From Schmidtea polychroa (Eukaryota): a stretch of DNA of 64,000 bases. A model generated the notes under the pieces. It had not been told where the DNA came from, did no database searches, and saw only the letters and a list, made by a program, of their open reading frames with translations. How positions within the stretch are numbered: the stretch's first letter is position 1; every line of letters begins with the position of its first letter. The translations under genes were made by a program, and so were the position numbers. The stretch lies in assembly GCA_044892525.1 (NCBI GenBank), contig CM097886.1, positions 128,588,001-128,652,000 of the forward strand, in the 5' to 3' direction. Of the stretch, positions 1-43,907 are shown piece after piece.

Positions 1-3000
1 CCACTCTTGTTGTTTCCATTTCCGGATAATTTCACCAAATTGTTCAGGGTACCATACGTACACCCGTCGATATTCTTCAATCGCTTTAACGATTTTTCGT
101 AGGTTTTGAATCCTTTTGCATGATTCGGCTATCCATTTTGCTAGTTCTACCACCGCTCGTCGACGATTTTTCGCCCCGTTTTGTAATATCTCCATCAACT
201 CCTTACATTTTTGTGCTTCCAACAATGTTGCTGCTTCTTCCTCATCTGCGTCGGCGTCTATTGGTAGATGTCCTGAATCAGACACTCTTCTCCTCATCAT
301 ACAGATTCTCGGTTGATTTTCTGGTATGTTCAGTCGTTGGTTCATTTCTTGTTCTGTTTCAACTTCTACTCTGATCTGGATAGCATTGTTTTTCACAAAT
401 TTTGACTGCTCATTCTCAATGTAACTTAGACGTATTAATTTAGGTGTCCCAGAAGCGATATTTTCTGATGTTGTTGGTCGTTGATAGCAGGCGCTCCTTG
501 GATCTGGTTTCAATGTTTCTTTATGCATGTTAAGGCTATCTTTCAATGGTTCGATTGCTATCGTCACTTTTCTGCTAAACGGCCATGGTACCTTGTCGTC
601 ATAATTTCCTTTGCAGATGACGAAGAATGCCGACACATAATTTCCTTTACCTATCCCGTCTCCGTTCGGGTATATTCGCAATTTCATCTTGTACTCACCT
701 AATCCTGAGTAGAACGGTGGACTTACTAATCGTGTGATTTTCTCTTCCTTTGCTGATTTTATCTTTTCCATCCAATTCTCAATTTTCCACGTGAATGGTG
801 CTAACCTTACTGGTTCTCGTATCTCCTCATCTTCTCCTGATGGTAATTCATTTTGGAATTCTTGTGGTAATATATCCTGGTAAGTATCGATCGGTTTCTC
901 TCTTACCCATACTGCTGCGATCTCTTCGGGTATATTATCTATCCAATTTGGTTCCAACTTTTGCTGCTCCCAATCCCATCGAGCTTCACTTTCGATCCAC
1001 ACTTTTTTCCATGGTATCAGTTTGCAATCTTCGTCATTGAAGGCTGCTAGTTTTAGTTTATCATCCTTTAGCCAATGGTTATAAATATCTATTATTCGAT
1101 CCATCTTTGCCCTCATTCCCCATTGGAATCTTTTAATTTGTTGCTCGGTTTTCGTGGCGTTTTTGTGCCCACCAGATGGTTCATCCATCGCGATTATATT
1201 GATGACGGCTCCATCTTCCCAGATTCCTAGTTCGTAAATTACAGTTCGGTCTCCTCTTTCTAGCATGTGCCGGTTGTACATTATTATCACATCTTCGATC
1301 ATTCCATCCTCACTATTTTCTCGAGCTTTTTGGATGATCTCTTGATCTATGATTTGCACTAACTCGTCAACTTGGCAATCGGGATTAACTTCTATTATTT
1401 GTTTCTCTTCATTTGGCAACTTCACCTTTATTTTTATCGTTTCATGCTCGCATTTGGTTCTCTCGTATTCTCCGTATTTAGATATCAATTCTGTCGCTCG
1501 TTTGTCTTCGAATCTCATAATTTCCGTGTCTCGTACGTCTTTAACAAATTGTTTCATTAGTTGTGGCCATCTTTCTCTCAATCTATTAATGTATTTCCTT
1601 GTCTGATCGATAGCTTGTTTGACTAAGATTATTTGGTTTTCTTTCATTATTTTTCGTTCGATCTTTTCCAATTCTGGTTCTACTTCATTGTTAAACACTT
1701 GTTGGATTTTCTTGAACATCTCTGCTACCGAGTCGTCATCCCTGGTTTTCTCTAAGGTTAAGATGTTAGTTTCGTTTGGCCATATCATCGCATCTACCAA
1801 ATGTATGCCTATTTTAACTTTGTAACCATCGACATATAATTGTTTATTTTTATGGCTCGTTCCCATTTTTTCCTGTACCCAGTTGTACAGTTCATCGGTA
1901 TTTGTTCCTTTTAATTCGATAGTCTGTATCTGAATCTCGGGGTGTTGAATGCTTACTTGATATTGATCTGGGCCTGCTTCCTTTAGTTTCTCTTTATATT
2001 TTGTTGCTAAATCTTTCCATGCTGCCGTTATTATACCTCCTTCACACTGGTATACTTGAGTTATAAGTTTTAAGCATTTTCTGTATGTTAACTCGTTGAT
2101 GTAGTTCTCATTTCGCTCTATTTCTGTTACTGTGTCGAGAATTTCCTCGAATATCTCTTCTTCATCTTTTTCTATCATTGATTTCATGTCATCATTTTCA
2201 CTCTCCTCACTACTTTGAGGTGTTTCACTGTTTGGGGGTGTTTTCGGTTCGTTATTTACCTCACTTGACTGAAATAATTCGCCTCCCAGGCTACTCACCT
2301 CACTTTTCTCATCTTCCTGATCCGTCTGATCGCTCCGCATTTGTCTCAGCATGTTTATTTTAGCTTTGGTATGTGGTTCCTTCTTTTCAAACCACTCATT
2401 TTTCCTGAACCAATGCTCTTTCACTTTTTCTTTTATTTGTTCCTCAGTTAATGTAGGATTTTCGTTTTTGATTCTGTCTTCGATTTTTTGTAGTAGTACC
2501 CTCTGAATTCGATTTTTTGTAATTATCTCATTGCTTTTTGGTTCGTCTTTACTCTCATCTCTCTTTTGTCTCCTTTCTTTCTCCTCTTTGGTAAATTCTT
2601 TAATCAATTGTATTTTCTCTTCACTGCTCAATTCTGTTCGTGGATCAATCTCATCTTCTTTTGTCGTTTTTATCTCCTTGTTTATTATCGGTTCACTCCC
2701 GTCGTTGTTAACACACTGCTCCGCAGTGTGCGATTCCTCTTTATTTGTTAATCTCATCATATTTATTCTTCCGGGATTCGCTTCCCGTTGTTTCCATCTT
2801 TCTTGAATTTCTCTGGCTTCCTCGTTTTGTAATCTTTGCCATTCGACTCGTTGCTGATCTTGTTGTTGCTTACTTGGTTGGTTCCGGATTTCCTCGGTGC
2901 TCTGCATCATGTTGATTCGTTGTTGTTGGTTATTAGTCGGTATTCGCAGGATCATATCTTTTAATTGTTCGATTTCCTGCATGAGGTTGATTTGTGTGTT

Positions 3001-4032
3001 CTGAACTGGATTGTTTGATCCTGGTTGATTTGGTTTGGTTCTCATCGTGCATTCTCTTGCCATGTGTCCAGGCTGATTACAATTGTAGCAGGTTCTGGTT
3101 CCTCCTCTGCTCATAGACATCATGGGTCCTCTGCAGACATTTTCCGTGTGGCCTCTTCTCCCACACTTTTGACACATCCTTGCTTTATAACATTCATTGC
3201 TCCAATGCCCTGGTCGTTGGCATATGTTGCACGTTCGATTGTTGATGTCGTTGTTCCTGAAATTATTAGTAAAATTTTGAATATTACCTCCATTGTTTTG
3301 GTTTCTTGTTTGTGGAGTTTTGAACAACTGTTGCGATCCTGGGATGAATTGATTCATTACTGGATTTGCATTATTGACTTGGTTGTTTGTGGTTGTTGCT
3401 GTTGCCGCTGGAGCTGCTGGAGCTGCTGTCATTGCTGCTACTTGTATTGGTGTTAAGTAGGTTTCACATTTGTTAGCGATTTTTAGTGCTTCTTCCAGCG
3501 TCTCTGGTGCTCGGCATCCCAAGGTTGCTCGTATATCCTCTCGTTTCATGCCATCTACGAATACGGCTATTATTTTGTCTTCCGGAACTGGTTGATTTGA
3601 ATCGAAGGCTTCTCGTGCTAGTCGTCTCAATTCGCATGCGTACAGTGCGTTGGATTCGTTATATTTCTGCTTTCGATGCAGAAAGTCTAACATTTTTCGA
3701 TTTCCCTCTTTTTCGGTACCGAATGTTTTTATTAAAAATTCCTTGATCTCTTTCCACGTTCTCAACTTAGTTGCATCACATTTCGCCTCCAAGTATACAT
3801 CTTGGGCGCTTCCCTTTAGATATAGGGGTATTCGTTCTCGTACGACTATGTCTGGCCAGTGACATATCGTAATGTATACTTCGAATTCCTTTATAAACGT
3901 TTCCAGCTGGTTTATATTTCCATCGAATGGCTCTCCTCGAAATTTCTCTCTGAATTCTCCAATGTTGACGTGCACATTACTTGTTTCCGGTGGGTCCGTT
4001 AGCCCTGTTACATTTGGAATTCCGTCTGTCAT
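1..4032 (-). CDS. gag: Gag-cargo polyprotein, 3'-partial (>=1344 aa): capsid-like Gag, 3x CCHC, 2 ubiquitin-like domains, TRAF-type MATH
   Basis: Hand translation shows the frame open from 4341 to 1, with the first ATG at 4032 (MTDGIPNV). Gag core FDGNINQLETFIKEFE...LYLKGSAQDVY...TWKEIKEFLIKTF lies at ~3930-3450. Knuckles CNICQRPGHWSNEC, CQKCGRRGHTENVC and CYNCNQPGHMAREC lie at 3231-3049. MATH PFTWKIENW...VSPPFYSG...YKMKLRIYPNGDGIGKGNYVSAFFVICKGNYDDKVPWPFSRKVTI...FVKNNAIQIRVEV lies at 798-358. Confidence 0.92.
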   Translation of the reverse strand, partial: MTDGIPNVTGLTDPPETSNVHVNIGEFREKFRGEPFDGNINQLETFIKEFEVYITICHWPDIVVRERIPLYLKGSAQDVYLEAKCDATKLRTWKEIKEFLIKTFGTEKEGNRKMLDFLHRKQKYNESNALYACELRRLAREAFDSNQPVPEDKIIAVFVDGMKREDIRATLGCRAPETLEEALKIANKCETYLTPIQVAAMTAAPAAPAATATTTNNQVNNANPVMNQFIPGSQQLFKTPQTRNQNNGGNIQNFTNNFRNNDINNRTCNICQRPGHWSNECYKARMCQKCGRRGHTENVCRGPMMSMSRGGTRTCYNCNQPGHMARECTMRTKPNQPGSNNPVQNTQINLMQEIEQLKDMILRIPTNNQQQRINMMQSTEEIRNQPSKQQQDQQRVEWQRLQNEEAREIQERWKQREANPGRINMMRLTNKEESHTAEQCVNNDGSEPIINKEIKTTKEDEIDPRTELSSEEKIQLIKEFTKEEKERRQKRDESKDEPKSNEIITKNRIQRVLLQKIEDRIKNENPTLTEEQIKEKVKEHWFRKNEWFEKKEPHTKAKINMLRQMRSDQTDQEDEKSEVSSLGGELFQSSEVNNEPKTPPNSETPQSSEESENDDMKSMIEKDEEEIFEEILDTVTEIERNENYINELTYRKCLKLITQVYQCEGGIITAAWKDLATKYKEKLKEAGPDQYQVSIQHPEIQIQTIELKGTNTDELYNWVQEKMGTSHKNKQLYVDGYKVKIGIHLVDAMIWPNETNILTLEKTRDDDSVAEMFKKIQQVFNNEVEPELEKIERKIMKENQIILVKQAIDQTRKYINRLRERWPQLMKQFVKDVRDTEIMRFEDKRATELISKYGEYERTKCEHETIKIKVKLPNEEKQIIEVNPDCQVDELVQIIDQEIIQKARENSEDGMIEDVIIMYNRHMLERGDRTVIYELGIWEDGAVINIIAMDEPSGGHKNATKTEQQIKRFQWGMRAKMDRIIDIYNHWLKDDKLKLAAFNDEDCKLIPWKKVWIESEARWDWEQQKLEPNWIDNIPEEIAAVWVREKPIDTYQDILPQEFQNELPSGEDEEIREPVRLAPFTWKIENWMEKIKSAKEEKITRLVSPPFYSGLGEYKMKLRIYPNGDGIGKGNYVSAFFVICKGNYDDKVPWPFSRKVTIAIEPLKDSLNMHKETLKPDPRSACYQRPTTSENIASGTPKLIRLSYIENEQSKFVKNNAIQIRVEVETEQEMNQRLNIPENQPRICMMRRRVSDSGHLPIDADADEEEAATLLEAQKCKELMEILQNGAKNRRRAVVELAKWIAESCKRIQNLRKIVKAIEEYRRVYVWYPEQFGEIIRKWKQQEW

Positions 4033-5123
4033 TATTTCTTGACACAAAATTGTTATATTGGTTGACTCTGAACTATTTCCTTCCTCGTCTGATGATTCAA
4101 TGTCACTTATCGGATCTAGTTCGGTTCGTTTAAGATCGTCGCTGTTCTCAAATTCGTTTGTTAAACTGTCTGATTCAAATACTGTTTCTACTGATGCTGG
4201 CTTCCTGTGTAGTTTTCTGTTGGTCTTGGCCTTTTGTATCTCTTCCTTTTCCAATAAACTGAGGTTTCCTTTACTTTTTCGCCTCGTTCGGTTAGCTATG
4301 CTATCAATTTTTCCTCCTTTTAATATCCTTTGATAAATTTTCTACTTTGTCAATCGAGCTCGATGTTTTCTAAGTATTTTTCTCGCTTTAATCTTTACGA
4401 TTCTCTAACTCTTCTTGGATTTGGTTTTATTAATTTCCTTGATTCTTCTCTTCTAATTGATTTCTCTATATCTCTTGATTTCTATTGCTTTCTTGATTTC
4501 TTTGATTTCTTTCTGAATTGTTTGCTTTATTCTAGAATAATTAACACCTCTAGTACATATCATAAATTCTCTTTATTAAACCCTTCATTTACTTTCCCTT
4601 TTCCCTTTATTTTACTGTCCCTTCGCTTCAAATTTTCTAGCTTTTCTACACTTCTCGCTATTCGCCCCATTTTGATTTTAAGTTGATTTTAAATTATCTA
4701 TAACTCGTATCAATTATCTATATAGTCGTATCAATTATCTATCCCTTTTATTATTATCATAGAAATATAATATTAATCACATAAATATCAAAATAAACAT
4801 ATCATTAATAAATAAAATTCAATAATTCAACTACTATCTATTCGTTCGCTTTTCCCCATCCAAAAACTGGTTTAATTTTCGCTTGCGCCGGCGCTTTATC
4901 ATAATTCTCCTCTACTCATTACATATTTATCGCACTTAATCTATTTCAGTTTAATCAATTTCATAGTTAATCATTGATGCTTTGGTTCGCGCGACCTCTA
5001 CATCCACCTTTATTTACCATCGGCTCTCTGGCCGGTTTGTTCAACTCCTTTATTTTCATTTAAATCATTTCACTCAATCACCATCGGCTCCTTGGCCGGT
5101 TTAATCAACTCATTTTAATCTCA

Positions 5124-5433
5124 TGAAGTCTTTTACGACTCCTAGACGCCTGGGCTTTTACACCATTACGCCATATAATCTACTATTACCCATCAACGCT
5201 TTGGTTTGTTAGACCTCCGCGTCGGCATCGGCTTCCGGCCGGTTTAATCAAAATTGAAGTCTTTTACGACTCCTAGACGCCTGGGCTTTTACACCATTAC
5301 GCCATATACTCTACTATTACCCATCAACGCTTTGGTTTGTTAGACCTCCGCGTCGGCATCGGCTTCCGGCCGGTTTAATCAAAATTGAAGTCTTTTACGA
5401 CTCCTAGACGCCTGGGCTTTTACACCATTACGC
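5124..5433. repeat. 131 bp tandem repeat (~2.4 copies) in the retroelement leader
   Basis: The unit TGAAGTCTTTTACGACTCC...GGCTTCCGGCCGGTTTAATCAAAAT restarts at 5124, 5255 and 5386, and the copies are nearly identical. Confidence 0.95.
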
Positions 5434-6840
5434 CGTATTCGCGGTCTTCGGTCCCTGACCGGTTTCAAATGCCCTAAATGAGGTTTCTTCAACCCCCAGA
5501 CGCCTTCGGTTTTAACACCTACTATCGTCCCTACCGCGATTAAATTGAGTTGACAGTTGACTTTCGGGCTAATCAAAAATTCGAGGCTCCTCCTACTCCA
5601 ACTCTTAATCTGCTGAGGCCTCACAACTGGCTCAATTCTTGGCCGCTTATTGAAAAGAGTCTAATACCGGTAACTCTAATCTCATCGCCGTTTCACTGGG
5701 CCTATCGGTACTCGGTGTGGGCATCCGGGTTTTGTACCGATCCCTGCTAGCAATAATCACGAAGAAAAAACATCCTATCTATCAGGATTTAAAAAACACG
5801 GAAATGCCTAATCGCCTTGATCGTGATTCTCAAAAGTGATGAACCAGATCTCCCGACTAGTGAAGCTAAAAGGAAATTGGGTATGCAGTTGACTCTCGGT
5901 CTCCCGCCTCACAACTGGTCCAATCTTGGTTGCCTGTTGAGTACGAGTTCTTTACCGGTTGACTCGCATCTCACAACCGTTTCACTGGGCTCCTTGATAC
6001 TCGGTGTAGGTAACTGGGTCTCTCTCGCTCGCTACCCTTCCGGGTTTTTGTATCAAGTCCCGCTAGCAACTCAAAAAGTGCGCCCAATACTCGGTGTGGC
6101 ATCCGGGTTTTTGTATTGGGTGATCCAGCATCATCAGTCCCTTGGCCGATAATCTCCTGGACACTACAGTCCGGTGGTTAGCCGCTGTACTCGGGTGCCT
6201 CATCACTCGCTAGGGAAAATCATTATTCTCATCTGATTTGAAGTCCAAAAACGGTTTCTTCAAATCCGCAGCTGCTCTCGGATTAAATTTTTAACATTTA
6301 GCGCGCGTTTTTCAATTTTTATTTTATTTTTCTATTTTTATTCACCCTTTTAGTTAGTCCCCGTCTCCCAGACAAAAAAATATAATAATCGCGTTGGTTC
6401 GTTTCCCACAAGTGGTGATCAGTCACTGGACAGAAACTCCCCAACATTTGCGATGGATCCTACTACATTCTCTCATCAGGGTGATCAGGATTTCCCCATC
6501 CGGGCAAGTGTCGTAAGGACGATTCACTTGTCATCCCCTCATTATCGTATCTCTTTATGCCAAAATAACAAACAGGAAGAAAAGAAAATTGGAAATAAAA
6601 ATCGTACTGATCTTAGCGATCAGCTCATTCATACGACTATGATCAGTCCTGCATTCAACTTTGATTTTAGTTCTAATTGCTGTGTTGCTTGTCTATTTAT
6701 TTAACGTATTTTGTGTCCTTTATATGTCTATGTTCATCGTATGTTTTACACCTTTCGGTTGCTATAATGGATTTTTAATATAATTTACTAATTTTATCAC
6801 TTCATATTCATTCACAAGAAATTTATTTGACAACATCTCC

Positions 6841-7323
6841 TTATGGGAGGTATATTACAATTTTCTCTCTAACATTCGTATCGCATACGTTGCATCGTTT
6901 AATTTTCTCTACGCAATTCTCGCAGTAGCATAAATGACCACATGGAATCGTCATTACTCGTATTTCATTGGTTCTGCATATGAAGCATTTTCTAAAATCT
7001 TTAACTTGATGTTCGATTGCTTCTTTAATTTCTTCCTCGATCGTTTCCATTTTTATCATTATCTCCTGCCATTTGATGTTAAATTTGGCATTGTCTAATC
7101 GTAAATTTTGAAGTTGATAAACTCTTTTAGTGGTCAATTCTGCATTAGGTGTCGCTATTTTCATCATTACGCATATTTCCTCAGCTTGCGGTCTTGGATT
7201 CAAGCTCATCTCATCTTGGATTTTTATCAACTGGTCCGCTTTGCGATTTAGCCGTTGTAACGAATTGTGTGTTAAATCTACGAATTTTTCGAGTCTCTTT
7301 GTAATGTAGCCGGTTGATTCCAT
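6841..7323 (-). CDS. Coiled-coil plus C-terminal IAP/MDM2-type C3HC4 RING protein (putative E3 ligase), 160 aa
   Basis: The C-terminus CFICRTNEIRVMTIPCGHLCYCENCVEKIKRCNVCDTNVREKIVIYLP matches the terminal RING pattern of IAPs, including the hydrophobic tail. ATG start, TAA stop, same strand as gag. No BIR domain seen. Confidence 0.88.
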   Translation of the reverse strand: MESTGYITKRLEKFVDLTHNSLQRLNRKADQLIKIQDEMSLNPRPQAEEICVMMKIATPNAELTTKRVYQLQNLRLDNAKFNIKWQEIMIKMETIEEEIKEAIEHQVKDFRKCFICRTNEIRVMTIPCGHLCYCENCVEKIKRCNVCDTNVREKIVIYLP

Positions 7324-8019
7324 CTAATTAAGATTTATTAATTAAAGTTCTCTTTTTATTAATATTCCGCGTCATTTTCCCCCTTTATCGTTTTCCCCCT
7401 AGTATCCAGAATACCTTATTTTATTAGTGCTTCGATAAACCTTTACATTCTACTTATTACCCTTAACAACCCCGTCTCCCTCTGTTTAATGCTTTATTCC
7501 GCGCAAATTTCTTTCATGATCTTGTGATTTTATTACAATCGTTTTAATTATATATAACCCATATCCCATTCCTTATCGCCATATTTTACACGTTTTCTGA
7601 TTAAGTTTAATTTCATGGTTCATTTGTTCTATCTTTATTAGCGTGCTATCCCCCCTTTTCCCTATTTTTAAATTTTTATTATTTCCTTATATTTACATTT
7701 TATTAATCGTTGATATTTACAATTTTATTATAATTTGTTTTCGTTTTAATTTTCGTTTATCCTCATTCATTCTATTACTGAGTTATTCGTACAGCATTCT
7801 CATACTCACTTTCAATACATCCATATGTCGTCATACTTTAAAACTTCCATCACTCATTTAAACATTTCACATACATTTTATCATATTCACATATCCATGT
7901 ACTAAGTTTAAGGGTTTGGGAAAACAATTTGCTCAATCTTGAATGCATATTACTTTATATCAGCTTTTACTCTCTCCATTATATCTATTCTCGGGTTCTT
8001 TCACCAATTAAATTTGCAA

Positions 8020-8037: not shown

Positions 8038-8443
8038 AATTTGTATGGTGGGTTACTGGTGGTTGAATGATTGAGTGCTGTTACCAGCGTAACCCAAAAT
8101 ACAACATTGTTTTTCCGCTTGGTACCCGTTGAGTGATCAACGTTGGTACTGTACCAAGGGTTGAGTACTCGCAAAAAGTGAGCGCATCAAAGCACTATAG
8201 TTGTCGAGTACTCCGTGGGTTCACGGACTACCGATAGAAGGTGTGTGTCCGATTTCTCAGGTCCCTTTATCAAAATTGTTTTCCCAACCTTATGCACAAA
8301 CTCTCATTTCCCAGGCAATCATAAACTGTACTAGTCATTATTTTATCACTACAAAACGTGCAGTATTTTAACAAGGAACATATTATTTGAAGACTACCAC
8401 AATACATAAAAATACTACAAAACACCTAAAACCGAATATAAGT

Positions 8444-8902
8444 TCAAACAGGCTTATTGGTAGGACTGGCCAATTTCGTCGCAGCTGCTAGTGACAAATT
8501 TGCTTGTCGCTCGTATTCGGCCAGTCTAGCTTTCTTCAATTTTTCCCGAATATTTCGGCCTAACCGCTTTCTTTTGGGTTTCTCTTTCGCGGCCGGGGGG
8601 TATATTGCTGCTAGTTCCACGGTCAACGGCCGGATTTGGCTTATGGCGGCTCCGTGAACTACTTGTTCATTTCGCTCGGTTTCTAGCGCGCGGAGCTGGA
8701 GCTTCAGTGCCCGGATCTCCATCTGATCCTGCGCGGCTTGAGTCTGCAGTTGAAGGACCTGCGCCACCTTCCTTTTCATATCCTCGGGACTAAACCAGGT
8801 GCTTTCTAGTTCCCGGCACCGTCCCTTGAGCTTGTCTACTCGTATGCGGAGCTCCTCGGACTGTTTTTGAGCTTCTGCCCTATCTCTTCGCAGATTTTCC
8901 AT
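8444..8902 (-). CDS. LTR-encoded coiled-coil protein with TWFSP motif and basic NLS-like tail (ORF-B)
   Basis: GC-rich ORF, ATG at 8902 (the track starts at GTG 8914). LESTWFSPEDMKRKVAQVLQLQ and PKRKRLGR align with YEGTWFSPPQMKEERSKVLRLE and RKRKRLTR in ORF 48191-48952. Confidence 0.8.
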   Translation of the reverse strand: MENLRRDRAEAQKQSEELRIRVDKLKGRCRELESTWFSPEDMKRKVAQVLQLQTQAAQDQMEIRALKLQLRALETERNEQVVHGAAISQIRPLTVELAAIYPPAAKEKPKRKRLGRNIREKLKKARLAEYERQANLSLAAATKLASPTNKPV

Positions 8903-9124
8903 TAGTCTGAACACTAGATAAATTCAGCGATTATATTCTTGCAGCATACTATTCATTCAATTATAAAATAAAATCAATATTATAAATAAACATAGTTTCG
9001 GATGTTAAGCACGCAATACACAAGATGATTTATTAAAAGGACTGAAATAATTATCACTAAAATCAAAGTTTAATAAAATCGCAACTGAATGTTAATTTGC
9101 AAAAAACAAAATTTTGACGATGAG

Positions 9125-9490
9125 TCAGTTCAGTCGCTTGCGAGGCCTTCCCCTCTTCCGCGGGGTTGCCTCGGCCTCTTCTAGGTCCTCCACGGTTTTT
9201 CCCTCTTTTTCTGCTTGGATTTGTAGCTCGATCTTCTTGAGTCGCATCTGAGCTGCTTCTACCTCGATGGCCGCTCGGTCGCGGGCCTCTTGCAAAAAAT
9301 CGTTTGTGGGCTCTGTTTTTACCCACGCCGGAGCGTCCGGCTCCGGCCCACTCCTGATTACTGGGCCAAAGTTGTCGAGGTCCAAACCCCGATTCCAATC
9401 ATGGATACGGTGCCATATGTACCGTGTACGGAGTCTGGTAAGCATCTGTCGGTCGGCTTCTTCGTGGCTATCGCTGTCAGAGTAGGACAT
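9125..9490 (-). CDS. LTR-encoded 121 aa protein with C-terminal AT-hook (ORF-A)
   Basis: GC-rich ORF in an AT-rich context with a helical middle, ending TPRKRGRPRKRLN (AT-hook core RGRP). Confidence 0.72.
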   Translation of the reverse strand: MSYSDSDSHEEADRQMLTRLRTRYIWHRIHDWNRGLDLDNFGPVIRSGPEPDAPAWVKTEPTNDFLQEARDRAAIEVEAAQMRLKKIELQIQAEKEGKTVEDLEEAEATPRKRGRPRKRLN

Positions 9491-9991
9491 TTCTACAAAA
9501 TAATAATCAAGCCCCTCTATACTGATTGAGATACGACGTCAACCACAAGATTTTGTTGACCCTTTTTCCCTTTAAAAAAAAAATATTTTATTTTAAGACT
9601 ACCATCTATAAGTTTAGGAGCAGTGGAATAAGATTTCCTACTTTATCAAAACAAACACACAAAAAAATTTTCGTCAAAATTCGTTTGTTTAAATTAATCA
9701 TTTCCATTCAAAATTTTGTTTACCACTGAGTAGTAATTTTAATTACTATTTATAAATTTTAATTTACATATTAATAAAATGTGAATTTTTTCCTTTTTGA
9801 TCGTCATTCTTAGGCCACTAAATTCGGGCACGCTGGGGCGACAGGTACTAGCAACGAACTAAGCTCTTCGTCTGCTTACCTTTCCTTCGGTTGTGCTCGT
9901 TATGAGTGGTTTGCTCTGCATACAAGTAATTTATTTAATTTGCTAATTTCTAAATTTCCAGGTGATCGATATCGGATTGGGATATCGATTT

Positions 9992-10360
9992 TTTGTAGTT
10001 AACCGTAATAATACCAATAATAATAACAATGAAATAACGATACTAATAATAATAATAATAATGATAATAATAATATTAATAATAGCAATGATAGTAATAA
10101 TAATAAGAATAATAATAAATTTTAATAATGGTAATAATAATAATACTAATAATAGTAATAACAAGAATAATAATAAATTTTTATAATGGTACTGATAATG
10201 ATGATAATAATAATAATGCTAATTATGATATTCATAATAATGATAATAATAATATAATAATAATAAGAATAACAATACTAATAGTAATGACAATGTTGAT
10301 ACTGCTAATAGTAATAACAAGGGAAATGATCAGGATTATGATAACTATAATTTTATAATC
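9992..10360. repeat. Degenerate (AAT)n microsatellite inside the LTR
   Basis: Long interrupted AAT/GAT run; it accounts for the poly-N/poly-I spurious ORFs. Confidence 0.9.
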
Positions 10361-12570
10361 CCATGTTTTAGAATTATAAATTCATGTTTTATAATTTATA
10401 CTTTGATAATTTTCGATTTATAATTTAAAATTTTTCCATTTAGGGATTTACAATCTTGTAATTTATAATTAATTTCATATTTTGAAATTTATACATTCAT
10501 ATTTTATAAGTTATAATTGCTTAACTTATAATTTATAAGTTTATAATCTAAAATTTATACTTTTGTAATTCGTATTTTCATACTTTATAATTTGAAATTT
10601 TTAGTCGACGGAATATACTTCTTACAACTTCCTTCTATGATCAACATTGTTTTCCGCAGTACTTACAGATTTCCTGGTCCTATTTGTGGATTAAACTTCA
10701 GGGTTCTAGCGCGTCTATCGCCTATCTGTAACCAATCCTAAGTTGATTTTTATACGAAAATTGTTTACTACTATCTCTGATCAGACTTTCTCCATTAACA
10801 ATTTACATTTTCAGGATCGACGTGGTTTGTACCTAGCTATCGTAATTATTTATAACTTATAGTTTTATAGTTAACAACAAGAACATTACAACTAAGAGCC
10901 TACACATTTACAAACATTTTAAAGTGGGAGCTAGATTTAAAATGTCTATCTTTACTCGGAATCAACATATCTAGATCAAGTTATACCTGTACGTATGCCG
11001 AATATCTCTCTTTTTTCTATTACTTTATCAAAGATCCTTACTACAAAACCTAGTTCGGCATATGTCTAAGTATAATTGAAATTACCATTATGAATCAACT
11101 AGCTACATTAATGTGAGTGTAGAATTGTGTAATTTTAGGTACGAGCTCTACTCAAATTAGAACCTTAGTGTAGAGTTATTGTTCAGGATTTTAAGTGTTG
11201 AGTTTAATTGTATATTACGCAATGAGTCGGGAAGAATATTGCTTTCATGGCCTCACTGTGACCACGTCCACAAACCTTAGTGTTGTGTGCTAAGTCAACC
11301 ATTTACGGCTGACCTTAAATAAATACGAAGAGTCAGGCGGAGGGTTTCCTCGACCTAACTCCATGGCAGGACCATGAAGTAGTTCGACCTCCGGCTGACC
11401 CGAACAAAAGGAAATCATATAATAAATATCACTATAATAACGATAATGCGTGTCTGCATGTCTTGTTAATAACGATTTTAATAAATTGGATGCAGGACTG
11501 AACAACGACGCAGGAATACCAGTACGCCGTTGATCACTCATACATCGCAAAAAAAAATTTTAAGCAAAAATAAATTTAAAATACCATCTATATAATTAAA
11601 CAATTAATATACAAATAAAGATCAATGCTTACTATCGATTTTGGAAATTTTGTCACAAAAATTTGGCATAAAAGTGATTGATTGTGACTGAAACGTGTCA
11701 GTATATATACCTATTTAGTACACGTGTATGTATTGATGCATTAAAACAAACTCGAATTCTTTTTATTCCAGAATTTTCTATTTAGCGATTTTGCTATTTT
11801 TAATGACAATTTTTGTGCCATAATTTTTGTTTTTATTTTTATATTTTTATTTTTTAATTATTTTTCGTTAATTTGCCGTCCATGATGGATTTGGAACGGT
11901 TCCAGAACATTCTATTTTATTTTTAATTTAATTTTTATTTTAACTGATGTTTTGTGAATTTCTTTTAAAGATTTATTATTTTTAATACTAATTTATTTAT
12001 TTTCCTTAACTTTTGTTGTTCTAGATAACTTTTGTGATGGTCATCGCCATTTTTATAGAATGTTCTGGGTTTTTCTGGAATGTTTTACTGTTTTTATCGT
12101 CTTTTAAGTTATTCGAGTCTGTTTTTTGTAACCCTGTGTTTATTTGGTTATTTTTGAGTTAGATTTTTGCATCACTTCTTGCTTTTGTATAATTTTGTTT
12201 AATTTCTTTGTTTATGTTTTTGTTGCTTTCTCCTTTAGTTAATATTGTTTATTTGGTGTAGGTTTTAATATTTAACTATACTTGGTGCTTTTTTACTTGC
12301 TGTGTACCTACGCGTTTCAGTCACAATTAGTATTTTGGGTCTAGAAATCAGTTCTAGCCCAACATAAATTAAAAATGAAAATTATATGGAGAAATTTTGA
12401 AATTGAGTTTTAACAAGAAAGGCTGGTGAAAAACTGGGCCGCATGAGCCTGCTATGCGGTGGCTTGTAATTTCTAGTTTTGCCACTCACAAGAAACCTTT
12501 CCTGCTTGGTTCCCATCCCAATTGCTGATTCCCATAGAATTGAAATCTTCTAAATGTTAAGATTATTTAA

Positions 12571-17995: not shown

Positions 17996-19272
17996 AAAAT
18001 GAAAGGAAGGAAGGAAGAAGCATTATCAAGTTTCAAAAGAGTTTGAACAGGCGCAATGTTGACCAATCAAATTTTATCCTACAAACATCAAACATGAGAA
18101 TTATCTTATTGTAAAGCAAAAATTAATAATAAAAATTTTAAATTATTTAAATAATTAATTTAATTTAAACAATTATAATAATAATCGACTAAATTAATGT
18201 GTCCAGTTTTAACTGGAAATGAAAAATAAAATTGGTAAAATAATTATTATTATAAATATTTTATTAATCTGGGATCCAAATCATTATTATAAATATGTTT
18301 AAGGTTGACAGACTCGTGTAAATTATGATCTGATAAGCTTAGTGGGATCGCAATCCACCGCAAACGGTCATCTTTATTTGGAGTTAAATTTAAATGTTTT
18401 CTCATAGCAATAACTTCTGGATCCTCATTAAGGTTCTTGGTGCTTTCATCGTTAGATGTGTCCATCAAATTGATTCTAGGAGTTTCAATAACCAACGATT
18501 GACTGACAAAATAGCCAGGATTTTTATCATTGACATTAGATCTTGCATTTCTATATAATTCATTGACCATTTTATACCATCCGTTACTCGCACTAATCTC
18601 TCGGATTTGTTCTTCACTGTGTCCCGATTTCCTCATTTTCTGTTGAATTAGTTCATTACTATCCTTATCGGAAGGGTGTAAATCTTCATACAATTCTTCA
18701 ATGTAAAAATAATTTGGAATTCGTTTGGGAGTTTTAGTGTTTTTTAATTTCAAATGGGAACTTACCGCAATTGGAACTTTTTCTTTGAATTTTCTGGCTT
18801 TTATTACTAAATTTTTAATTTTAGGTTTTATACAATTGTTATTCGAATTATCTGATAATTTCTTTGATCTTTGCAGTGAAATGATTTTAGTACTGGCCTC
18901 ATTCATGAAATGTTCTGGAGCCTTATCTTTTACATTTTCATTCCAACTTTTATTACTACTACTTGTGGATATTATTTCAGGTGTTTTATTGAAATTATTT
19001 ATATTTAATATTTTAATCGGTTGACCAGGTCTCGGTTTGGCTGCATAAACTTGTTGAAAATTATGTTTTTTAATCAAGGGGAGACCAAATGCGGGTCTGT
19101 AACATGAATTTAGGGGATGAAAATTAATGTTAAAGCCCAATTGATTTTTGTTAATTAAAATAGTTTCAGTAAGCATTTTAATTTTTAAAATTTTCAAATA
19201 ATTGTACAAAATTGATGCAAAAAATTAATATATTAATTTTATTAAATTTTGATTGGTTTAAAAGAATTTTAA
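17996..19272 (-). repeat. Left arm of ~1.28 kb inverted duplication
   Basis: Reverse complement of 25122-26398; paired coordinates sum to 44394. Confidence 0.95.
18250..19209 (-). CDS. Orphan 319 aa basic protein, copy 1 (TTG at 19209; shared ATG at 19176)
   Basis: A long intact intronless ORF in very AT-rich DNA; differs from copy 2 by two residues plus the start codon. No domain recognised. Confidence 0.65.
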   Translation of the reverse strand: MYNYLKILKIKMLTETILINKNQLGFNINFHPLNSCYRPAFGLPLIKKHNFQQVYAAKPRPGQPIKILNINNFNKTPEIISTSSSNKSWNENVKDKAPEHFMNEASTKIISLQRSKKLSDNSNNNCIKPKIKNLVIKARKFKEKVPIAVSSHLKLKNTKTPKRIPNYFYIEELYEDLHPSDKDSNELIQQKMRKSGHSEEQIREISASNGWYKMVNELYRNARSNVNDKNPGYFVSQSLVIETPRINLMDTSNDESTKNLNEDPEVIAMRKHLNLTPNKDDRLRWIAIPLSLSDHNLHESVNLKHIYNNDLDPRLIKYL

Positions 19273-19849
19273 AATTTTTTCAATTAATATTTTTAAAATT
19301 TAAAATAAAAACTCTAGATAAAAGATTTATTTATTATCAATTTTAAAAATTTTGTTGTCATATAATTATAAATTATATTGCTGACTACCAAAGCTTTCCC
19401 TAACAATATTGGTTCCAATTTGATGCCCTCCTCTGCCAGTTTTCAGTTTCACTAATGTCATATTAATTTAAAAATAATTATTTTCTCATTGTTCGTCACT
19501 TTACCTTTACTTTATTGTTCTCATTATTTTTAAATTATTACATATTTTACAATTAAATAAATCTATCAATATAGATTTTAAAATTTTTTTTATAAATATT
19601 CAATAATAATGATTACATTTTATTTTTAAAAATTAATCAATTAATAAATTGATAATTTATAAAATCATATTTTCTCTAAAAATGGAATGCGATTGGGCGA
19701 ACCAATCAAGCTCGTATCGCGATGAATCTGAATTTCGAATATTTATTAAAATGTATATAATATATTAATACTCTGCTCTCTTCTTTTTTGAAAATATTAA
19801 AAGTGCTACATGTCTAACGCGGGAAACTTTCCGGGACAATTTTAAGAAG

Positions 19850-22084: not shown

Positions 22085-24420
22085 AGTAACATTTTCATTA
22101 TAAGTAACACGTTATTTTCAAATATATATTTATTATAAAATCTGAATATTTAAACAATATATCAATTTAAATATCGTCACTCTTCCCTTCTTTAAGAACT
22201 GTGATACTCTTTCAGCCATTCAATTCTTCTGCATCTTTTCCCATCTGGATGTTCTAGTTCAACTTGGTGTTCCGTTGGAAAACCAAGAATCTTTACAGGA
22301 CCTTCGAACAAATTACCATGTTTTGATCTCTTATGTGGATTCATCTTTACTAGAACTCTTTGACCCACCTCAAAATGCATCTCTTGATCTCATTTTATCT
22401 GCCGCTACCATAACATTATTCTGTGCTGTCAATAATACTTTTTCTAGATTAAGATCTATGAATGAATTCTTTCCATGTATATTGACCTTTCTTCCAAATA
22501 GTATTTCCATTGGCGAAAATCCCGTAGAATTCTGTGTTGTTGAGTTTAAGGAATATTCAATTTTTGGTATAATGTCGTCCCAACACCTTCCAGTTTGACC
22601 ATCACTCAAAAATGTCACGATCATATCACGAACTGTTCGTATTACTCGTTCTGCTAAACCATTAGACTTATGATCATATGGCGAAGAATATATCCATTCG
22701 ATGTTAAAATTATCAACTAGGCCTTTGATTTGACTTCCCTCGAAAACCTTACCTCTATCCGAAACAATGTAAGCTGGTTTACCGAATTTGTATTTCCAAT
22801 TGTGTAAAAGTACACGATATACAGTCTTTTCATCTTGGTCGGAGTAGGCGTTAAACTAACCATCTTGCTGAACTGATCGATTATTAATACCAAATAACGG
22901 TTACGGTTTCTGGTTTCATTCATATGAGCAATATCGATTACGATTTGTTCCATCGAATTCATTATAACCCTAGGAATTAAATATTCAGCTGTTTTACTTG
23001 TCAAAACTTTCCTTCTCATGCATATATCACATTTTTTTATAATATCTCGTATATCGGTTACCATGTGTATCCAAAAGAAATAATCGTTCATATAATTTGT
23101 TGTTTTCTTAACACCTGAATGACAGAGTTCTTTGTGCATATGCTATACGACTTGTGACGCTATCTTCTGCGGAATTATTATCTTTTGCTTATCATCATTT
23201 ACTATTAATAACATATTGTCTTTTACCAATATCTGATCCAATCTTTTGAAATAAGGTGACAGTATCCAAAATAAAGTAATCGACCTTATTTGGAAACGCC
23301 AAGATTGGTGACTCGATAATACTTGTTTAAGTCTAGGGACGAATAAACTGAAGATCCGAACAAAGAATCGAATATTGTTTGAGGATCTGCTATTGGAAAA
23401 CTGAATTTTTCAGTAACTTCATTAACCTTCCTAAAATCTTGACACATCCTGATTTGCTAGTTAAATATATTTTCAATCTGATTGGTCGATAGGATATGAT
23501 CCGTCTTTCTTACCTACCACGACCGTAGGTGAGTTCCATTGGCTGTGGCATTTCCTGATAATGCCCATTTTTAATAATTTCATAATCATATCGTCCACTT
23601 TTGATTCCATCTCCATTGCAATGCGCCTATGATTTTGAATAATTGGATTTCCAGAAGTTTTTATAGTATGTGTAACCAAACTAGTACAACTAAGATCAAA
23701 ATCTGATGCCATGAAGATCGTACTATACATGGTTACTAACTCCACCAGTTTTGGGTCTGAATTTGGTCCAAAAACATCCAGCGTTTTTTTACATCGTTCG
23801 GTATCACTGTAACGAACACCAACCGTATCTGAATCTATTAATCCAACTGATGTATCTGGCACAAGTTTTATTTTAAAAGCTAAAATCAAATTCATTCCAC
23901 CTACAAAACTTGGACTTATATCCCTAACCACAATTACATTCACTTTCTGACACAATCGAAGTTGTAAAGTCACCTAAGCGTGATATCGTCTTATTTCCAA
24001 ACGCCCCCTCTGAGCGCCATATCTACCGGTTTTAAAACTGGACTGCCACACTTCTTTTGTGCGTCATTAAAGGCCATCCATAATTCTTTTGCGTCTCCAT
24101 GCAATAACAAATCGAATGCTGCTCCTAAATTGAGCGAATTTATCGTCACAAATTCTTCAATAGATACAAGTCAGTCCTTTGCATTTTCTTCTTTTCCTCC
24201 AAAAAACTTCTTTTTCACTGGATAAATTGAATTTTGAATATTCTTTGGTAAAGATTCCACAATTTTCTGCCTTTGCAGTGATCTCGTCAGAGCTGCGATT
24301 TCGGCGTGGTCGCCAGTAACATTTTCATTATAAGTCATTAAACTAACACGTTATTTTCAAATATATATTTATTATAAAATCTGAATATTTAAACAATATA
24401 TCAATTTAAATATCGTCTCT
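22085..24420 (-). mobile_element. Internally deleted Ty3/Gypsy element with ~100 bp LTRs
   Basis: Direct repeats at 22085-22181 and 24315-24420 (AGT...ACT type termini). PBS TGGCGACCACG (tRNA-Arg-like), PPT AAAGAAGGGAAG and AATAA on both flanks. Contains gag and protease fragments, the RT start (IRKCHSQWNSPTVVVGKKDGS) and integrase HKELCH...CDIC plus the rve core. Most of RT/RNase H is missing. Confidence 0.9.
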
Positions 24421-25121
24421 AATAATAATAATAATAATGAATAATTCTTTGATAAAATAAATGTTAAAATATTAAAATTTAAAAAACTATCATTTATTAA
24501 TAAATATACGAAAAATTTTTTTTTACAACTTTCAATTTTTCATTTATACATGTAAAAAACTAAACAGAATTTTTATTTTAAATTTATCCTAAATAATAAG
24601 TGTTTTTATTAAAATTACTTTTTCTTTCTGAACTCCTTGTTTTTAAAACAAGCACTAATAATTAAGAAATTTGAATAAACTAATATAAATTTTTTTATCA
24701 AAGTTAAACAAACAATGTTCAAGAAAATTAAAAAAACATATATGCGTTCAGCATAGATTTCATTTATTCATTCAACCAATCAAGTCCGGCCCGGGGTCGG
24801 CAGTTCAGTCTATCGTTTGGGGCGCTAGATTTTGTAGGACTCCGTGATACTCCAAAAAAGCGCAATGATGACTTCAAATTATCAAACAATGTTGTTAAAA
24901 AGTATAACCTAAGTCCTGAATACAACATACTTATTTTCTATCTATCATTATTTGAAATATGAAAATTATACTTTTAACCTTCTATGAAAGCATTAAAATA
25001 TTTTCTTCTAAATTAATTTTTCATCACTTTAAATTTAATGCAATTAATTTTCATTTAAAATTTTTAAGATTTAATATTTTTAAATTTAAAATATCAAAAT
25101 TTAAAGTTTGAAAATATTTAT

Positions 25122-26398
25122 TAAAATTCTTTTAAACCAATCAAAATTTAATAAAATTAATATATTAATTTTTTAGCATCAATTATGTATAATTTTTTGA
25201 AAATTTTAAAAATTAAAATGCTTACTGAAACTATTTTAATTAACAAAAACCAATTGGGCTTTAACATTAATTTTCATCCCCTAAATTCATGTTACAGACC
25301 CGCATTTGGTCTCCCCTTGATTAAAAAACATAATTTTCAACAAGTTTATGCAGCCAAACCGAGACCTGGTCAACCGATTAAAATATTAAATATAAATAAT
25401 ATCAATAAAACACCTGAAATAATATCCACAAGTAGTAGTAATAAAAGTTGGAATGAAAATGTAAAAGATAAGGCTCCAGAACATTTCATGAATGAGGCCA
25501 GTACTAAAATCATTTCACTGCAAAGATCAAAGAAATTATCAGATAATTCGAATAACAATTGTATAAAACCTAAAATTAAAAATTTAGTAATAAAAGCCAG
25601 AAAATTCAAAGAAAAAGTTCCAATTGCGGTAAGTTCCCATTTGAAATTAAAAAACACTAAAACTCCCAAACGAATTCCAAATTATTTTTACATTGAAGAA
25701 TTGTATGAAGATTTACACCCTTCCGATAAGGATAGTAATGAACTAATTCAACAGAAAATGAGGAAATCGGGACACAGTGAAGAACAAATCCGAGAGATTA
25801 GTGCGAGTAACGGATGGTATAAAATGGTCAATGAATTATATAGAAATGCAAGATCTAATGTCAATGATAAAAATCCTGGCTATTTTGTCAGTCAATCGTT
25901 GGTTATTGAAACTCCTAGAATCAATTTGATGGACACATCTAACGATGAAAGCACCAAGAACCTTAATGAGGATCCAGAAGTTATTGCTATGAGAAAACAT
26001 TTAAATTTAACTCCAAATAAAGATGACCGTTTGCGGTGGATTGCGATCCCACTAAGCTTATCAGATCATAATTTACATGAGTCTGTCAACCTTAAACATA
26101 TTTATAATAATGATTTGGATCCCAGATTAATAAAATATTTATAATAATAATTATTTTACCAATTTTATTTTTCATTTCCATTTAAAACTGGACACATTTA
26201 TTTAGTCGATTATTATTATAATTGTTTAAATTAAATTAATTATTTAAATAATTTAAAATTTTTATTATTAATTTTTGCTTTACAATAAGAAATTCTCATG
26301 TTTGATGTTTGTAGGATAAAATTTGATTGGTCAACATTGCGCATGTTGAAACTCTTTTGAAACTTGATAATGCTTCCTTCCTTCCTTCCTTTCATTTT
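25122..26398 (+). repeat. Right arm of inverted duplication
   Basis: See left arm, 17996-19272. Confidence 0.95.
25185..26144 (+). CDS. Orphan 319 aa basic protein, copy 2
   Basis: Intact ATG-to-TAA ORF; near-identical inverted copy at 18250-19209. Confidence 0.7.
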   Translation: MYNFLKILKIKMLTETILINKNQLGFNINFHPLNSCYRPAFGLPLIKKHNFQQVYAAKPRPGQPIKILNINNINKTPEIISTSSSNKSWNENVKDKAPEHFMNEASTKIISLQRSKKLSDNSNNNCIKPKIKNLVIKARKFKEKVPIAVSSHLKLKNTKTPKRIPNYFYIEELYEDLHPSDKDSNELIQQKMRKSGHSEEQIREISASNGWYKMVNELYRNARSNVNDKNPGYFVSQSLVIETPRINLMDTSNDESTKNLNEDPEVIAMRKHLNLTPNKDDRLRWIAIPLSLSDHNLHESVNLKHIYNNDLDPRLIKYL

Positions 26399-37400: not shown

Positions 37401-40400
37401 TTAATCACTAGCAATATAATATTAACTGAGAATATAATGTATAAACATATGATGATGTATCCATTTAATGCCGATATGAAATATATGATTGTATTTTCGC
37501 TATTATTTCGGTGAACCTGGGTTTAACTTTCGGTACAGTTGCAATTTGCAGCTCTGGCTCTAGATTTCATATAGTTTCAATTCCAACTACAACTGACAAA
37601 CTTATTCAGTGATGGGATTCAACCGAGCAGGCTGTTAATTTATTTAAATCTTCTATTTGTTACCTTTACCAACACAGCAGTTTTCTCACAGGGTGCGATG
37701 GACGGTTGGTCAGCGGTTTAAGAACAAAAGTGATACATGCTCTCTAGTTTAAATCGATACTTATTTTTTTATTATTTAGGGGATCACACAACATTTGCAA
37801 TATATTATGTGGAATATCAATTTTAAACTATTACGACATGAACGATCACTTATCTAGATTCATTTTGTAAGTTGTATTATAGTTAGCCATCTACGTACCT
37901 GCTTTCATAAATATTCTTCCACTTTAACCAACATTGGCAGTGAAACTGTTTTTCAGAACGCCACATAAATGGAAAAGCAAATATAGATAAAACTAAACTA
38001 TTCAATCATTAGAATATAGTCCAAAAAGGCGCGGTCGAAAGTGAGAAATATTAAAACGCTCATTGTAATCTCAAGATGATTTGATGTATTTTGCCGTTCT
38101 ACATTTACTGCATTACCCAATTAGAATTATTTATTTAATTCTATTCTCACTCGTAGGCCAGAGATCTCAGCAACCAACTGGCAGCTAATGTTGGCCCTAC
38201 AGTGCATATCCAAGGTGCACAACATGCACAAATTGTGCATCACGGAGGCAACGCATATCTTGTACAAAGCACAGGTCGACTGGAGGATGAATCTCCTAAC
38301 CTTTCTCACGCTACCAAGAGTAATCCAGTAACGGTATGAATTTTGAACTACATTTTCCTTATCCAATTAAACTTTAAAGATGCAGTGGCTTTACGATAAT
38401 TATGAAACTGCGGATGGGGTCAGCTTGCCTCGTTCTACACTGTATAATCATTACCTTCAACATTGCCAACAAGAGAAATTAGAGCCAATGAATCAAGCAT
38501 CATTCGGAAAATTGATTCGGTCCGTGTTCTTCGGGTTGCGAACTCGTAGGCTCGGAACGAGGTTAGTCGTTTGGAAATTGTCGAAATGTTCTATATCGAT
38601 CATTGTATATTCTAGAGGCAATTCCAAATATCATTATTATGGGATCCGAATCAAACCGAACTCTTTGTTGAATCATTACGTAGAAGATCAAACGTTCGCA
38701 ATGCGACAATACCCGTCATTTCATCGACAAAGGTTTATTGATAAGTTTATCGGTAATGATTATCATTGTGGCACTCATTTTAGTAATGATAACGATTTCC
38801 ACTGGCGGGCCAAATATTCCAGTAACGGATTGAATTATGGCGGTGTCAGTGGGGTCGGTAGTGGAGGAGCGGGTATCAATAACAATTCTGTCATCACCAG
38901 CACCAGCAGCAGCAATCCTACCAGTGGCGGCACAGGCAATAACAGCTCTATCCTCATCATGAACAACGCCACTGGTGGTAGCAATATGGCTGACTGTAGC
39001 AACAATCAGCACAGCAATTACCTCGGGGAGAGCAGCTCTGCCTTGCCGAATCTCAGTGATATCATTGCACGAGCTGAGTTGGATACGTTGATCGAGGAAG
39101 ACTGCCACAACGAGGGCGTCTCACTGGAGGACATAAACATCTTCTGCCAAATGTATCTCGATCACAGTGATGCTGTTCTCAGTGCTGTTGTTTATCTCAA
39201 TTTCAAATACATCGAAACGCTATGGCAAGAATTTTGGCGTACATCATCAAAGGTGATTGTAATGATTGATTATTGATAATAATAATTAATTTAATCAATA
39301 AATTAAATAATTAACTAATTGATTGATTTAGTCAATAAATAGAGAAAATACCTGTAGTCAAAATGTGGATGAAAGAAATTAAAAAACAAATCAAAGGCGA
39401 GAGAAAATATTATATTACTTAATAAACGGAATAATGAGTAATTTAGTCAATAAATCGAAAAACTAATTAATTTAATCAATAAATGAATTAATCAATTTGG
39501 TCAATAAATGGAATATTATATGTATTTAGTCAATAAATAGAGAATAATATTGATCTATAGTCAAAATTAAGATAAAAGAAAATTTAAAAAACATCAAATG
39601 TGAAAAATAAGTTATTTTATGTAAAAATTAATTAATTTAATCACAAAATGGAATAATTATTTATTTTAATCACTGAAATTAATAATCAATTAAATAAATA
39701 TATATCATAGTTATACTGAAAAACATTGAAGTACCATACGAAATATTTTATATAATTCAATATAATTTGTAACGCTAAATATTCTGGTTCATCTGATCCA
39801 CCAAATTGCCCATTTGACGAGCATTATCTAACTGAAACCTACTTTTCAATATTGTCTTCATCGACCTAATCTCTCAATTTAAATATATATAAACATTACA
39901 AGCTCTGTTATACCCAGTGCAAATCTCAATAGTAGACTACTTTCGAGTGTACCAGTGTTGCAATGTACCAGGGAAAGTATGCAATAGAGTTGAATCAGCA
40001 ATATTGTATACTTAACTGGCACGAAGAGAAATGATTGTTGATGTCAAAACAGTAATTAACATTTATATCGAATCCTTGAGTGCGTTTGGTTGTGGAATCT
40101 AATATGAATAACATGAAATCCTATTAAATTGAAACGAAAATAGGTCCCATCTGAATGTTGAATGAACCTCCATTGACAGCAAATAGAAATGGAAAAAGAC
40201 CTGACTTAGCGATAATGCCAAAAAGATTCGCATCATTGTCAAGAACGATGTGGATTAATTTAATTCAATTTTATCCAATGTTTTTCATCCTAAATTTCTT
40301 TTCAGCCGACCGCCAATCATTTCGAAGAGAAATTGTCGAAAGCTCAACTTCATAGACTTTTGAAAATTCCACAAATTCAAAGCTTTCTTCAACTTTTCGA

Positions 40401-42860: not shown

Positions 42861-42895
<35 letters not shown>

Positions 42896-43835: not shown

Positions 43836-43907
<72 letters not shown>

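Follow-up and report, generated by a model that had tools for sequence, protein, structure and literature searches.

The closest described relatives of the locus analysed here are the Burro (GYPSM1) elements of planarians, gypsy-like LTR retrotransposons of giant size whose cargo includes MATH, BIR and env (PMC6431247, section 7), for which ubiquitin-like (Ubi2/SUMO-like) and BCL2-like motifs have also been reported (PMC6431247). The B-IAP protein of Burro1 is reported to protect planarian stem cells from apoptosis (Lee et al., Dev Cell 2026, doi 10.1016/j.devcel.2026.03.001, as related in PMC13465017), and BURRO1 RNA has been described in another setting in an article whose consulted text does not mention the ORF discussed below (PMC8532177). 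The window, a 64,000-nucleotide stretch of the Schmidtea polychroa genome (G000:C2:128588001-128652000), holds part of an element of about 34,160 bp with a target-site duplication of 4 bp which, as matched to the published description, is a Burro-type giant gypsy. Like those elements it exceeds 30 kb, has long LTRs, encodes a polyprotein of about 4,800-4,900 aa (Gag, CCHC, MATH, in-frame env, PR, RT, RH, IN, ankyrins) and carries BIR cargo and accessory ORFs; in contrast, section 7 of PMC6431247 names neither a RING ORF between the primer-binding site (PBS) and gag nor a separate full-length TRAF gene. The remark in the original prediction that an anti-apoptotic cargo had been reported for a planarian giant element agrees with what is published on B-IAP (PMC13465017) and on BIR cargo (PMC6431247). 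The features of the element are as follows, in window positions unless a contig position is given.

8046..12364, minus strand: 5' LTR, 4,319 bp, TG...CA
9125..9490, minus strand: LTR-encoded ORF of 121 aa, no Pfam family above cut-off
8444..8902, minus strand: LTR-encoded ORF of 152 aa
8020..8037, minus strand: PBS of 18 nt, tRNA-Pro(TGG), separated from the LTR end by 8 nt, matching the genome's tRNA-Pro(TGG) genes
7324..7340, minus strand: AT-rich stretch ending in TAG directly 5' of the RING ATG, candidate splice acceptor
6841..7323, minus strand: upstream RING ORF of 160 aa, with predicted helices at residues 2-41, 61-76 and 85-110, then a C3HC4 RING and tail
6883..6987, minus strand: RING core C113-C147, all eight ligands kept, Asn145 where most relatives carry Pro
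6844..6882, minus strand: 13-residue tail, with Asp148 as the linchpin residue and Tyr158 where cIAP1 has Phe616
5124..5438, no strand assigned: 131-bp unit repeated in tandem about 2.4 times, within the leader of 2.8 kb that separates the RING ORF from gag
1..4341, minus strand: start of the polyprotein, frame from 4341, first ATG at 4032; Gag, CCHC knuckles, MATH
361..795, minus strand: MATH inside the polyprotein, residues 1183-1327
G000:C2:128575848-128577272: full TRAF gene, 474 aa, downstream of pol, outside the window
C2:128574529-128575707: BIR-RING B-IAP gene, 392 aa, downstream of pol, outside the window; BIR (E 9.5e-16) plus RING
G000:C2:128566205-128570523, left of the window: 3' LTR, 0 mismatches to the 5' LTR

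The absence of mismatches between the two LTRs indicates a young insertion. The upstream RING ORF sits between the 5' LTR and gag with its ATG 696 nt past the PBS and its RING at the C-terminal end, as originally noted. The polyprotein frame is single and uninterrupted, with about 4,790 codons, and continues to the left of the window, where MATH is followed by a Monjiviricetes-type env-like fusion protein, PR, RT, RH, IN and ankyrins (Pfam); a 151-aa ORF, the TRAF gene, the BIR-RING gene and three further ORFs come next, the TRAF and BIR-RING genes lying 11-13 kb left of the window. The BIR-RING gene, which lies downstream of pol, answers to the description of Burro1 B-IAP (PMC13465017). The upstream RING ORF differs from it in being a separate gene, 20 kb upstream, with no BIR domain and with a non-canonical linchpin. 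The statement that no BIR is visible therefore holds for the 160-aa ORF, in which neither Pfam nor an alignment-based model revealed one, but not for the element, given its 392-aa BIR-RING gene. Elsewhere in the element a ubiquitin-like match amounts to a Pfam hint at E 0.08 without a PDB match, and Pfam matched no BCL2.

In what follows, family 1 denotes the window's Burro-type family (subfamilies A and B) and family 2 a second Burro family of the same genome. An identical PBS is found in subfamily B and in family 2. The gap between LTR and PBS is usually 0-3 nt; in family 1 the PBS lies 8 nt from the final CA of the LTR (window 8038-8045). No polypurine tract was apparent 5' of the 3' LTR (L012 1524-1550). 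By eye, a WFSP motif like that of the 152-aa LTR ORF also occurs in family-2 LTR ORFs, and a 253-aa ORF resembling a family-2 LTR ORF (window 48191-48952, minus strand) probably marks a solo LTR or a remnant of another Burro family. The window further contains a 1,170-nt inverted repeat (18104-19273 / 25121-26290, 97%) with an ORF of 308-319 aa per arm, which flanks broken gypsy pol pieces at 22717-23895, and, at 38380-43918 on the plus strand, exons that by eye read like a host RFX transcription factor.

The RING of the upstream ORF matches zf-C3HC4_3 at residues 111-152 (Pfam, E 1.3e-11), with zinc ligands in C3HC4 spacing at C113, C116, C128, H130, C134, C137, C144 and C147, and retains loop-1 Ile115, the pre-RING helix and the tail Tyr. 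Its closest solved structures by sequence are cIAP2, cIAP1 and XIAP, then CGRRF1, BIRC7, IDOL and MEX3C. Since a single-sequence fold reached a pLDDT of only 40 and was discarded, a model built from a 61-row alignment was used (pLDDT 74.9, residues 42-58 unsure); it shows three helices in the N-terminal part, where the original prediction named a coiled coil. Foldseek placed cIAP2, IDOL, cIAP1 and XIAP about equal against this model (E 2e-6 to 2e-5) and MDM2/MDMX lower, while viral IAPs and viral RING proteins matched it through the RING alone. The proposed IAP-type assignment is thus borne out insofar as cIAP2, cIAP1 and XIAP lead the PDB matches, but IDOL scores as high as the IAPs, and the class is better described as IAP/IDOL, wider than IAP. 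With cIAP1/2, XIAP, BIRC7 and IDOL the upstream RING shares the spacing, the pre-RING helix, a 13-residue tail and an aromatic residue at +11 (Foldseek E 2e-6 to 5e-5); it differs from them in lacking BIR, UBA, CARD and FERM domains, in its Asp linchpin, in the missing loop proline and in a three-helix N-terminus without a match.

The ORF is a real gene under purifying selection (dN/dS about 0.1). The 150 best-scored of 3,813 candidates were all full length without stops; a search with P0002 as query recovered the second subfamily (43 rows at >=89%, with internal stops in 7/43), and the two subfamilies together account for at least 190 copies in the genome. Comparison of 10 subfamily-A with 20 subfamily-B loci gave dN 0.073 and dS 0.70, that is, dN/dS 0.10 over 200 A-B pairs (0.11 in the helical part and 0.09 in the RING; Fisher P 1e-22 for one A-B pair), so far below neutrality that the ORF is not a chance reading frame. 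In family 2, whose polyprotein is about 35% identical to that of the window, a RING ORF of 161 aa starts about 250-330 nt past the same PBS, the order PBS-RING-gag being common to both families. The N-terminal parts of the two versions are homologous over their full length (hhalign probability 95.6, E 1.3e-8, 97 columns) and the family-2 ORF has a dN/dS of 0.06-0.11 in six pairs, which indicates that the gene is old within the Burro group. A database gene model, P0004, fuses a 34-36% identical version of the RING to a Burro-like Gag. Downstream of pol, the TRAF gene was present and no B-IAP gene was found in 3/3 family-2 copies read. On a comparison of two families, the conserved set consists of the upstream RING, the full TRAF and four other accessory ORFs, beyond which family 1 also has the polyprotein MATH and B-IAP; since the four other accessory ORFs likewise co-occur with TRAF in both, the co-occurrence of RING and TRAF is not specific. 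In seven pairs (L015-L034 vs L062-L079), elements with a subfamily-B RING stand at a RING dS of 0.71-0.92 from the window's element and at a B-IAP dS of only 0.08-0.21, and are, on these distances, mosaic.

Between the PBS and the RING start codon lie 26 ATGs, so that translation of the RING would require a transcript spliced at the AG next to its ATG. A TAG abuts the RING ATG in both subfamilies, and in family 2 a T-rich tract is followed by a YAG 2 nt upstream of it. A YAG within 5 nt of the ATG precedes 7/10 element ORFs as against 84/485 ATGs overall (P 3e-4, for a 5-nt window chosen post hoc); ORFs with TAG or CAG at this distance start at window 9490, 8902 and 7323 and at L012 8817, 8272, 6707 and 5446. 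The pattern suggests one long transcript resolved by cis- or spliced-leader trans-splicing, and the RING mRNA is likely a spliced or trans-spliced sub-genomic product. Contigs of four runs, presumed to be RNA, that covered parts of the region showed no joint at the predicted acceptor among the matches listed.

The second-loop proline of RING domains contributes to E2 contact, and XIAP works as a ligase with a sub-optimal linchpin. We compared these positions in 41 distinct family-1, 30 family-2 and 49 B-IAP sequences, from loci picked by score and hence non-random. The family-1 linchpin is Asp in 40/41 and Asn in 1/41, Asp148 of the window copy aligning with Arg606 of cIAP1, and the loop proline is missing in all 41. 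The family-2 linchpin is basic in 30/30 (Lys 22, Arg 8), with 29 of the 30 lacking the proline, and the B-IAP RING has both Pro and Arg in 49/49. Every family-1 tail is 13 residues long (41/41), as in cIAP2, with Tyr as the aromatic at +11; the B-IAP tail has 16 residues and those of three host-type RINGs 19-21. Among 145 related RINGs parsed from 149 HMMER hits, the linchpin is Arg in 80, Lys in 16 and Asp in 9, and the loop proline is present in 99/145 and missing in 46/145. In RNF38, R454D binds E2~Ub 27.7-fold worse than the wild type and R454E retains trace activity (PMC12326332), and the tail aromatic acts in trans in cIAP1 (Phe616), BIRC7, RNF4 and MDM2-MDMX (PMC6349121), according to the portions of these articles consulted. 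Given its Asp linchpin and missing loop proline, it is doubtful that the family-1 RING works as an efficient stand-alone E3, as the original prediction had it; it is likely a weak or partner-type ligase. The combination of an intact dimer tail with a degraded E2 surface is an MDMX-like pattern in terms of sequence features. MDM2-MDMX, in which a scaffold RING supports an active partner through its tail, may serve by analogy as a model (PMC12326332, PMC6349121, both consulted in part), although the structural match to MDM2/MDMX is weaker (E about 1.5e-3). A family-wide pseudo-ligase was ruled out by the Lys/Arg linchpin of family 2. We also considered tail complementation, in which a B-IAP tail three residues too long would need a helper; this idea is weakened by the host-type tails of 19-21 residues, since a long tail common to B-IAP and three host-type RINGs gives no sign that B-IAP needs one.

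RINGs of the same general build occur in other mobile elements of this genome. P0019, P0031, P0041, P0160 and the Burro RINGs have in common an RL motif and the missing proline, and when P0041 and P0160 were searched against G000, their nearest counterparts (best 150 each) lay outside Burro. Their ORFs are flanked by an rve integrase, a C5 protease and an A32-like ATPase, the Polinton/Maverick set. Such a RING ORF directly follows the polymerase frame in 6/11 neighbourhoods fetched (L094, L095, L096, L099, L100 and L103, with L108-L113); in 2/11 further ones the polymerase frame is elsewhere or the context is an array. That frame had no Pfam or PDB match and is presumed to be a polymerase from family-B-like motifs and from the neighbouring genes. 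One Polinton-type RING (L105/L112) lies at the opposite end, adjoining the ATPase, and others are found in tandem arrays (G000:C1:8.68-8.73 Mb and C2:188.14-188.17 Mb; L101, L102, L083, L090, L104) whose units measure about 1.03 kb; the C1 array has more than 40 listed units, the majority of them with an open frame. Polinton/Maverick RING proteins resemble the Burro ones in size (about 165-185 aa), in joining helices to the same RING class, in the RL motif, in lacking the proline and in the aromatic tail. Identity to the Burro RING is 30% over 113 residues; they differ in their DNA-virus-like host element, a Ser linchpin and a 12-residue tail, and similarity outside the RING is close to that of shuffled sequences.

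Burro and Polinton RINGs grouped at 97/82 in a tree of 70 columns and 62 rows (44/142 outside matches sampled) and at 88/93, with two unrelated rows inside, in a tree of 70 columns and 44 rows from which two long rows were omitted. In a search with the Burro profile, P0019, P0031 and P0041 came first of about 150, those three having been pre-selected. A comparison restricted to the N-terminal parts gave reciprocal E values of 0.003-0.02, with one shuffle as good, and in the opposite direction was no better than shuffles (three family-2 rows included RING letters). On these sequence comparisons a common origin of the two RINGs within mobile elements is conceivable, if somewhat short of probable. 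The B-IAP RING stands apart from the Burro upstream RINGs in the trees and groups at 97/95 with three host-type RING exons (L180, L181 and L182; G000:C2:155.09-155.11 Mb, 76.56 Mb), which are candidate source genes of B-IAP; a grouping of the upstream RINGs with B-IAP and the host-type RINGs was not rejected by an AU test (p 0.34). RING-containing IAPs are reported as lost in sampled flatworms, in the consulted part of PMC13159474. A bolder scenario, which we consider improbable as a whole, is that a BIR-less RING family passed between Polinton and env-bearing Burro elements, and that the Burro lineage, on capturing a host IAP, turned its older RING MDMX-like; one transposon would then carry an active/scaffold RING pair plus TRAF, all spliced from one LTR promoter.

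The original prediction paired the RING with a separately encoded MATH product, with ubiquitin-like domains, as a two-part cIAP/TRAF mimic. Both parts are encoded by one element, and a related element has a MATH in an upstream accessory ORF (PMC6431247, in the part consulted). The MATH is, however, not a separate product, being residues 1183-1327 of the single polyprotein frame, and shares 33% identity with the MATH that the TRAF gene of this element encodes. The ORF also lacks BIR1, the part through which cIAP2 binds TRAF2 (PMC6158389, consulted in part), and shares with P0004 no TRAF-binding peptide consensus, judged by eye. Family 2 keeps the RING, yet the alignment of its polyprotein to that of the window goes straight from residue 1123 to 1380 across about 85 codons and leaves out the MATH in 10/10 copies, and Pfam revealed no MATH or BIR in the family-2 polyprotein pieces scanned; RING and MATH are therefore not co-inherited. 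A TRAF/cIAP mimic is better sought in the full TRAF and B-IAP genes that lie side by side downstream of pol, and we regard the RING-MATH pair as very unlikely. What survives of the idea of a self-carried ubiquitin/TRAF/IAP kit applies to the element as a whole, and has largely been published already. Least probable of all, to the point of being negligible, is neutrality, with the ORF carried along as a passenger and still intact merely through the youth of its copies: although the LTRs of the window copy are identical and searches list the best-scoring copies first, a dN/dS of about 0.1 at dS 0.7-2.0 in two families (gap-free frames exclude alignment error), and an ORF length and place that stay constant across polyproteins only 35% identical, speak against it.

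We tentatively favour, at somewhat less than even confidence, a conserved Burro accessory gene for a BIR-less IAP/IDOL-class RING, likely expressed from a spliced mRNA and likely dimeric, which in family 1 would likely be a weak partner-type ligase subunit that tunes B-IAP/TRAF signalling and does not pair with the polyprotein MATH. The protein would be made from a sub-genomic mRNA spliced to the AG adjoining its ATG and would dimerise through its pre-RING helix and tail as in cIAP1; with an Asp linchpin and no loop proline, its own subunit would activate E2~Ub less well, and its tail Tyr may assist a second, active RING in trans, in the manner of MDM2-MDMX. As that second RING, the simplest candidates would be the B-IAP of the same element, with its canonical RING domain, and a RING protein of the host. 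Consistent with this, Asp is the linchpin in the family with B-IAP and Lys/Arg in the family where no B-IAP was found; the correlation nevertheless comes from two families only, and neither the Asp (9/145) nor the missing proline (46/145) is unique among related RINGs. Moreover, the lack of the proline in family 2 and the Ser of the Polinton-type relatives indicate that the family may use another E2 or mechanism. Closely behind ranks an independent ligase, a serious possibility in its own right: an active homodimeric E3 in both families whose helices would bring in a protein of the host, either a restriction factor or a member of a TRAF complex, for ubiquitination, with Asp lowering the rate or shifting the E2. 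The retention of all eight ligands, Ile115, the pre-RING helix and the tail Tyr, the basic linchpin of family 2 with no B-IAP found alongside, and a helical part as constrained as the RING all argue for it, and the contrast in dS between RING and B-IAP in the same 7 elements fits old alternative versions kept by recombination. Against it, acidic residues count among the more harmful linchpin changes in RNF38 (PMC12326332, in the part consulted), and dN/dS bears no sign of the positive selection expected from a host arms race. A zinc-binding scaffold or decoy outside ubiquitin transfer, for instance a dominant-negative tying up host RING ligases or E2s, would accord with the variety of linchpins in the wider family (Asp, Lys/Arg, Ser or Ile) and with a proline that is nearly always missing, but is unlikely given that every group retains the tail aromatic, whose known role is to aid catalysis in trans.

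A literature search, with most subscription journals outside its reach, found the upstream RING ORF named nowhere; while the element and its anti-apoptotic cargo are already known, the upstream RING features appear to be new, and the gene is apparently an accessory gene undescribed so far. Since the element carries a second, apparently older RING gene under strong selection and a full TRAF beside B-IAP, knocking it down by RNAi takes out several genes of ubiquitin signalling together; the element may also control the activity of its anti-apoptotic ligase. With Asp where B-IAP is present and Lys/Arg where it is not, the two natural versions make the choice between active ligase and scaffold directly testable. 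If true, the Polinton link would mean that a retroelement and a DNA virus-like element in the same host have shared a gene.
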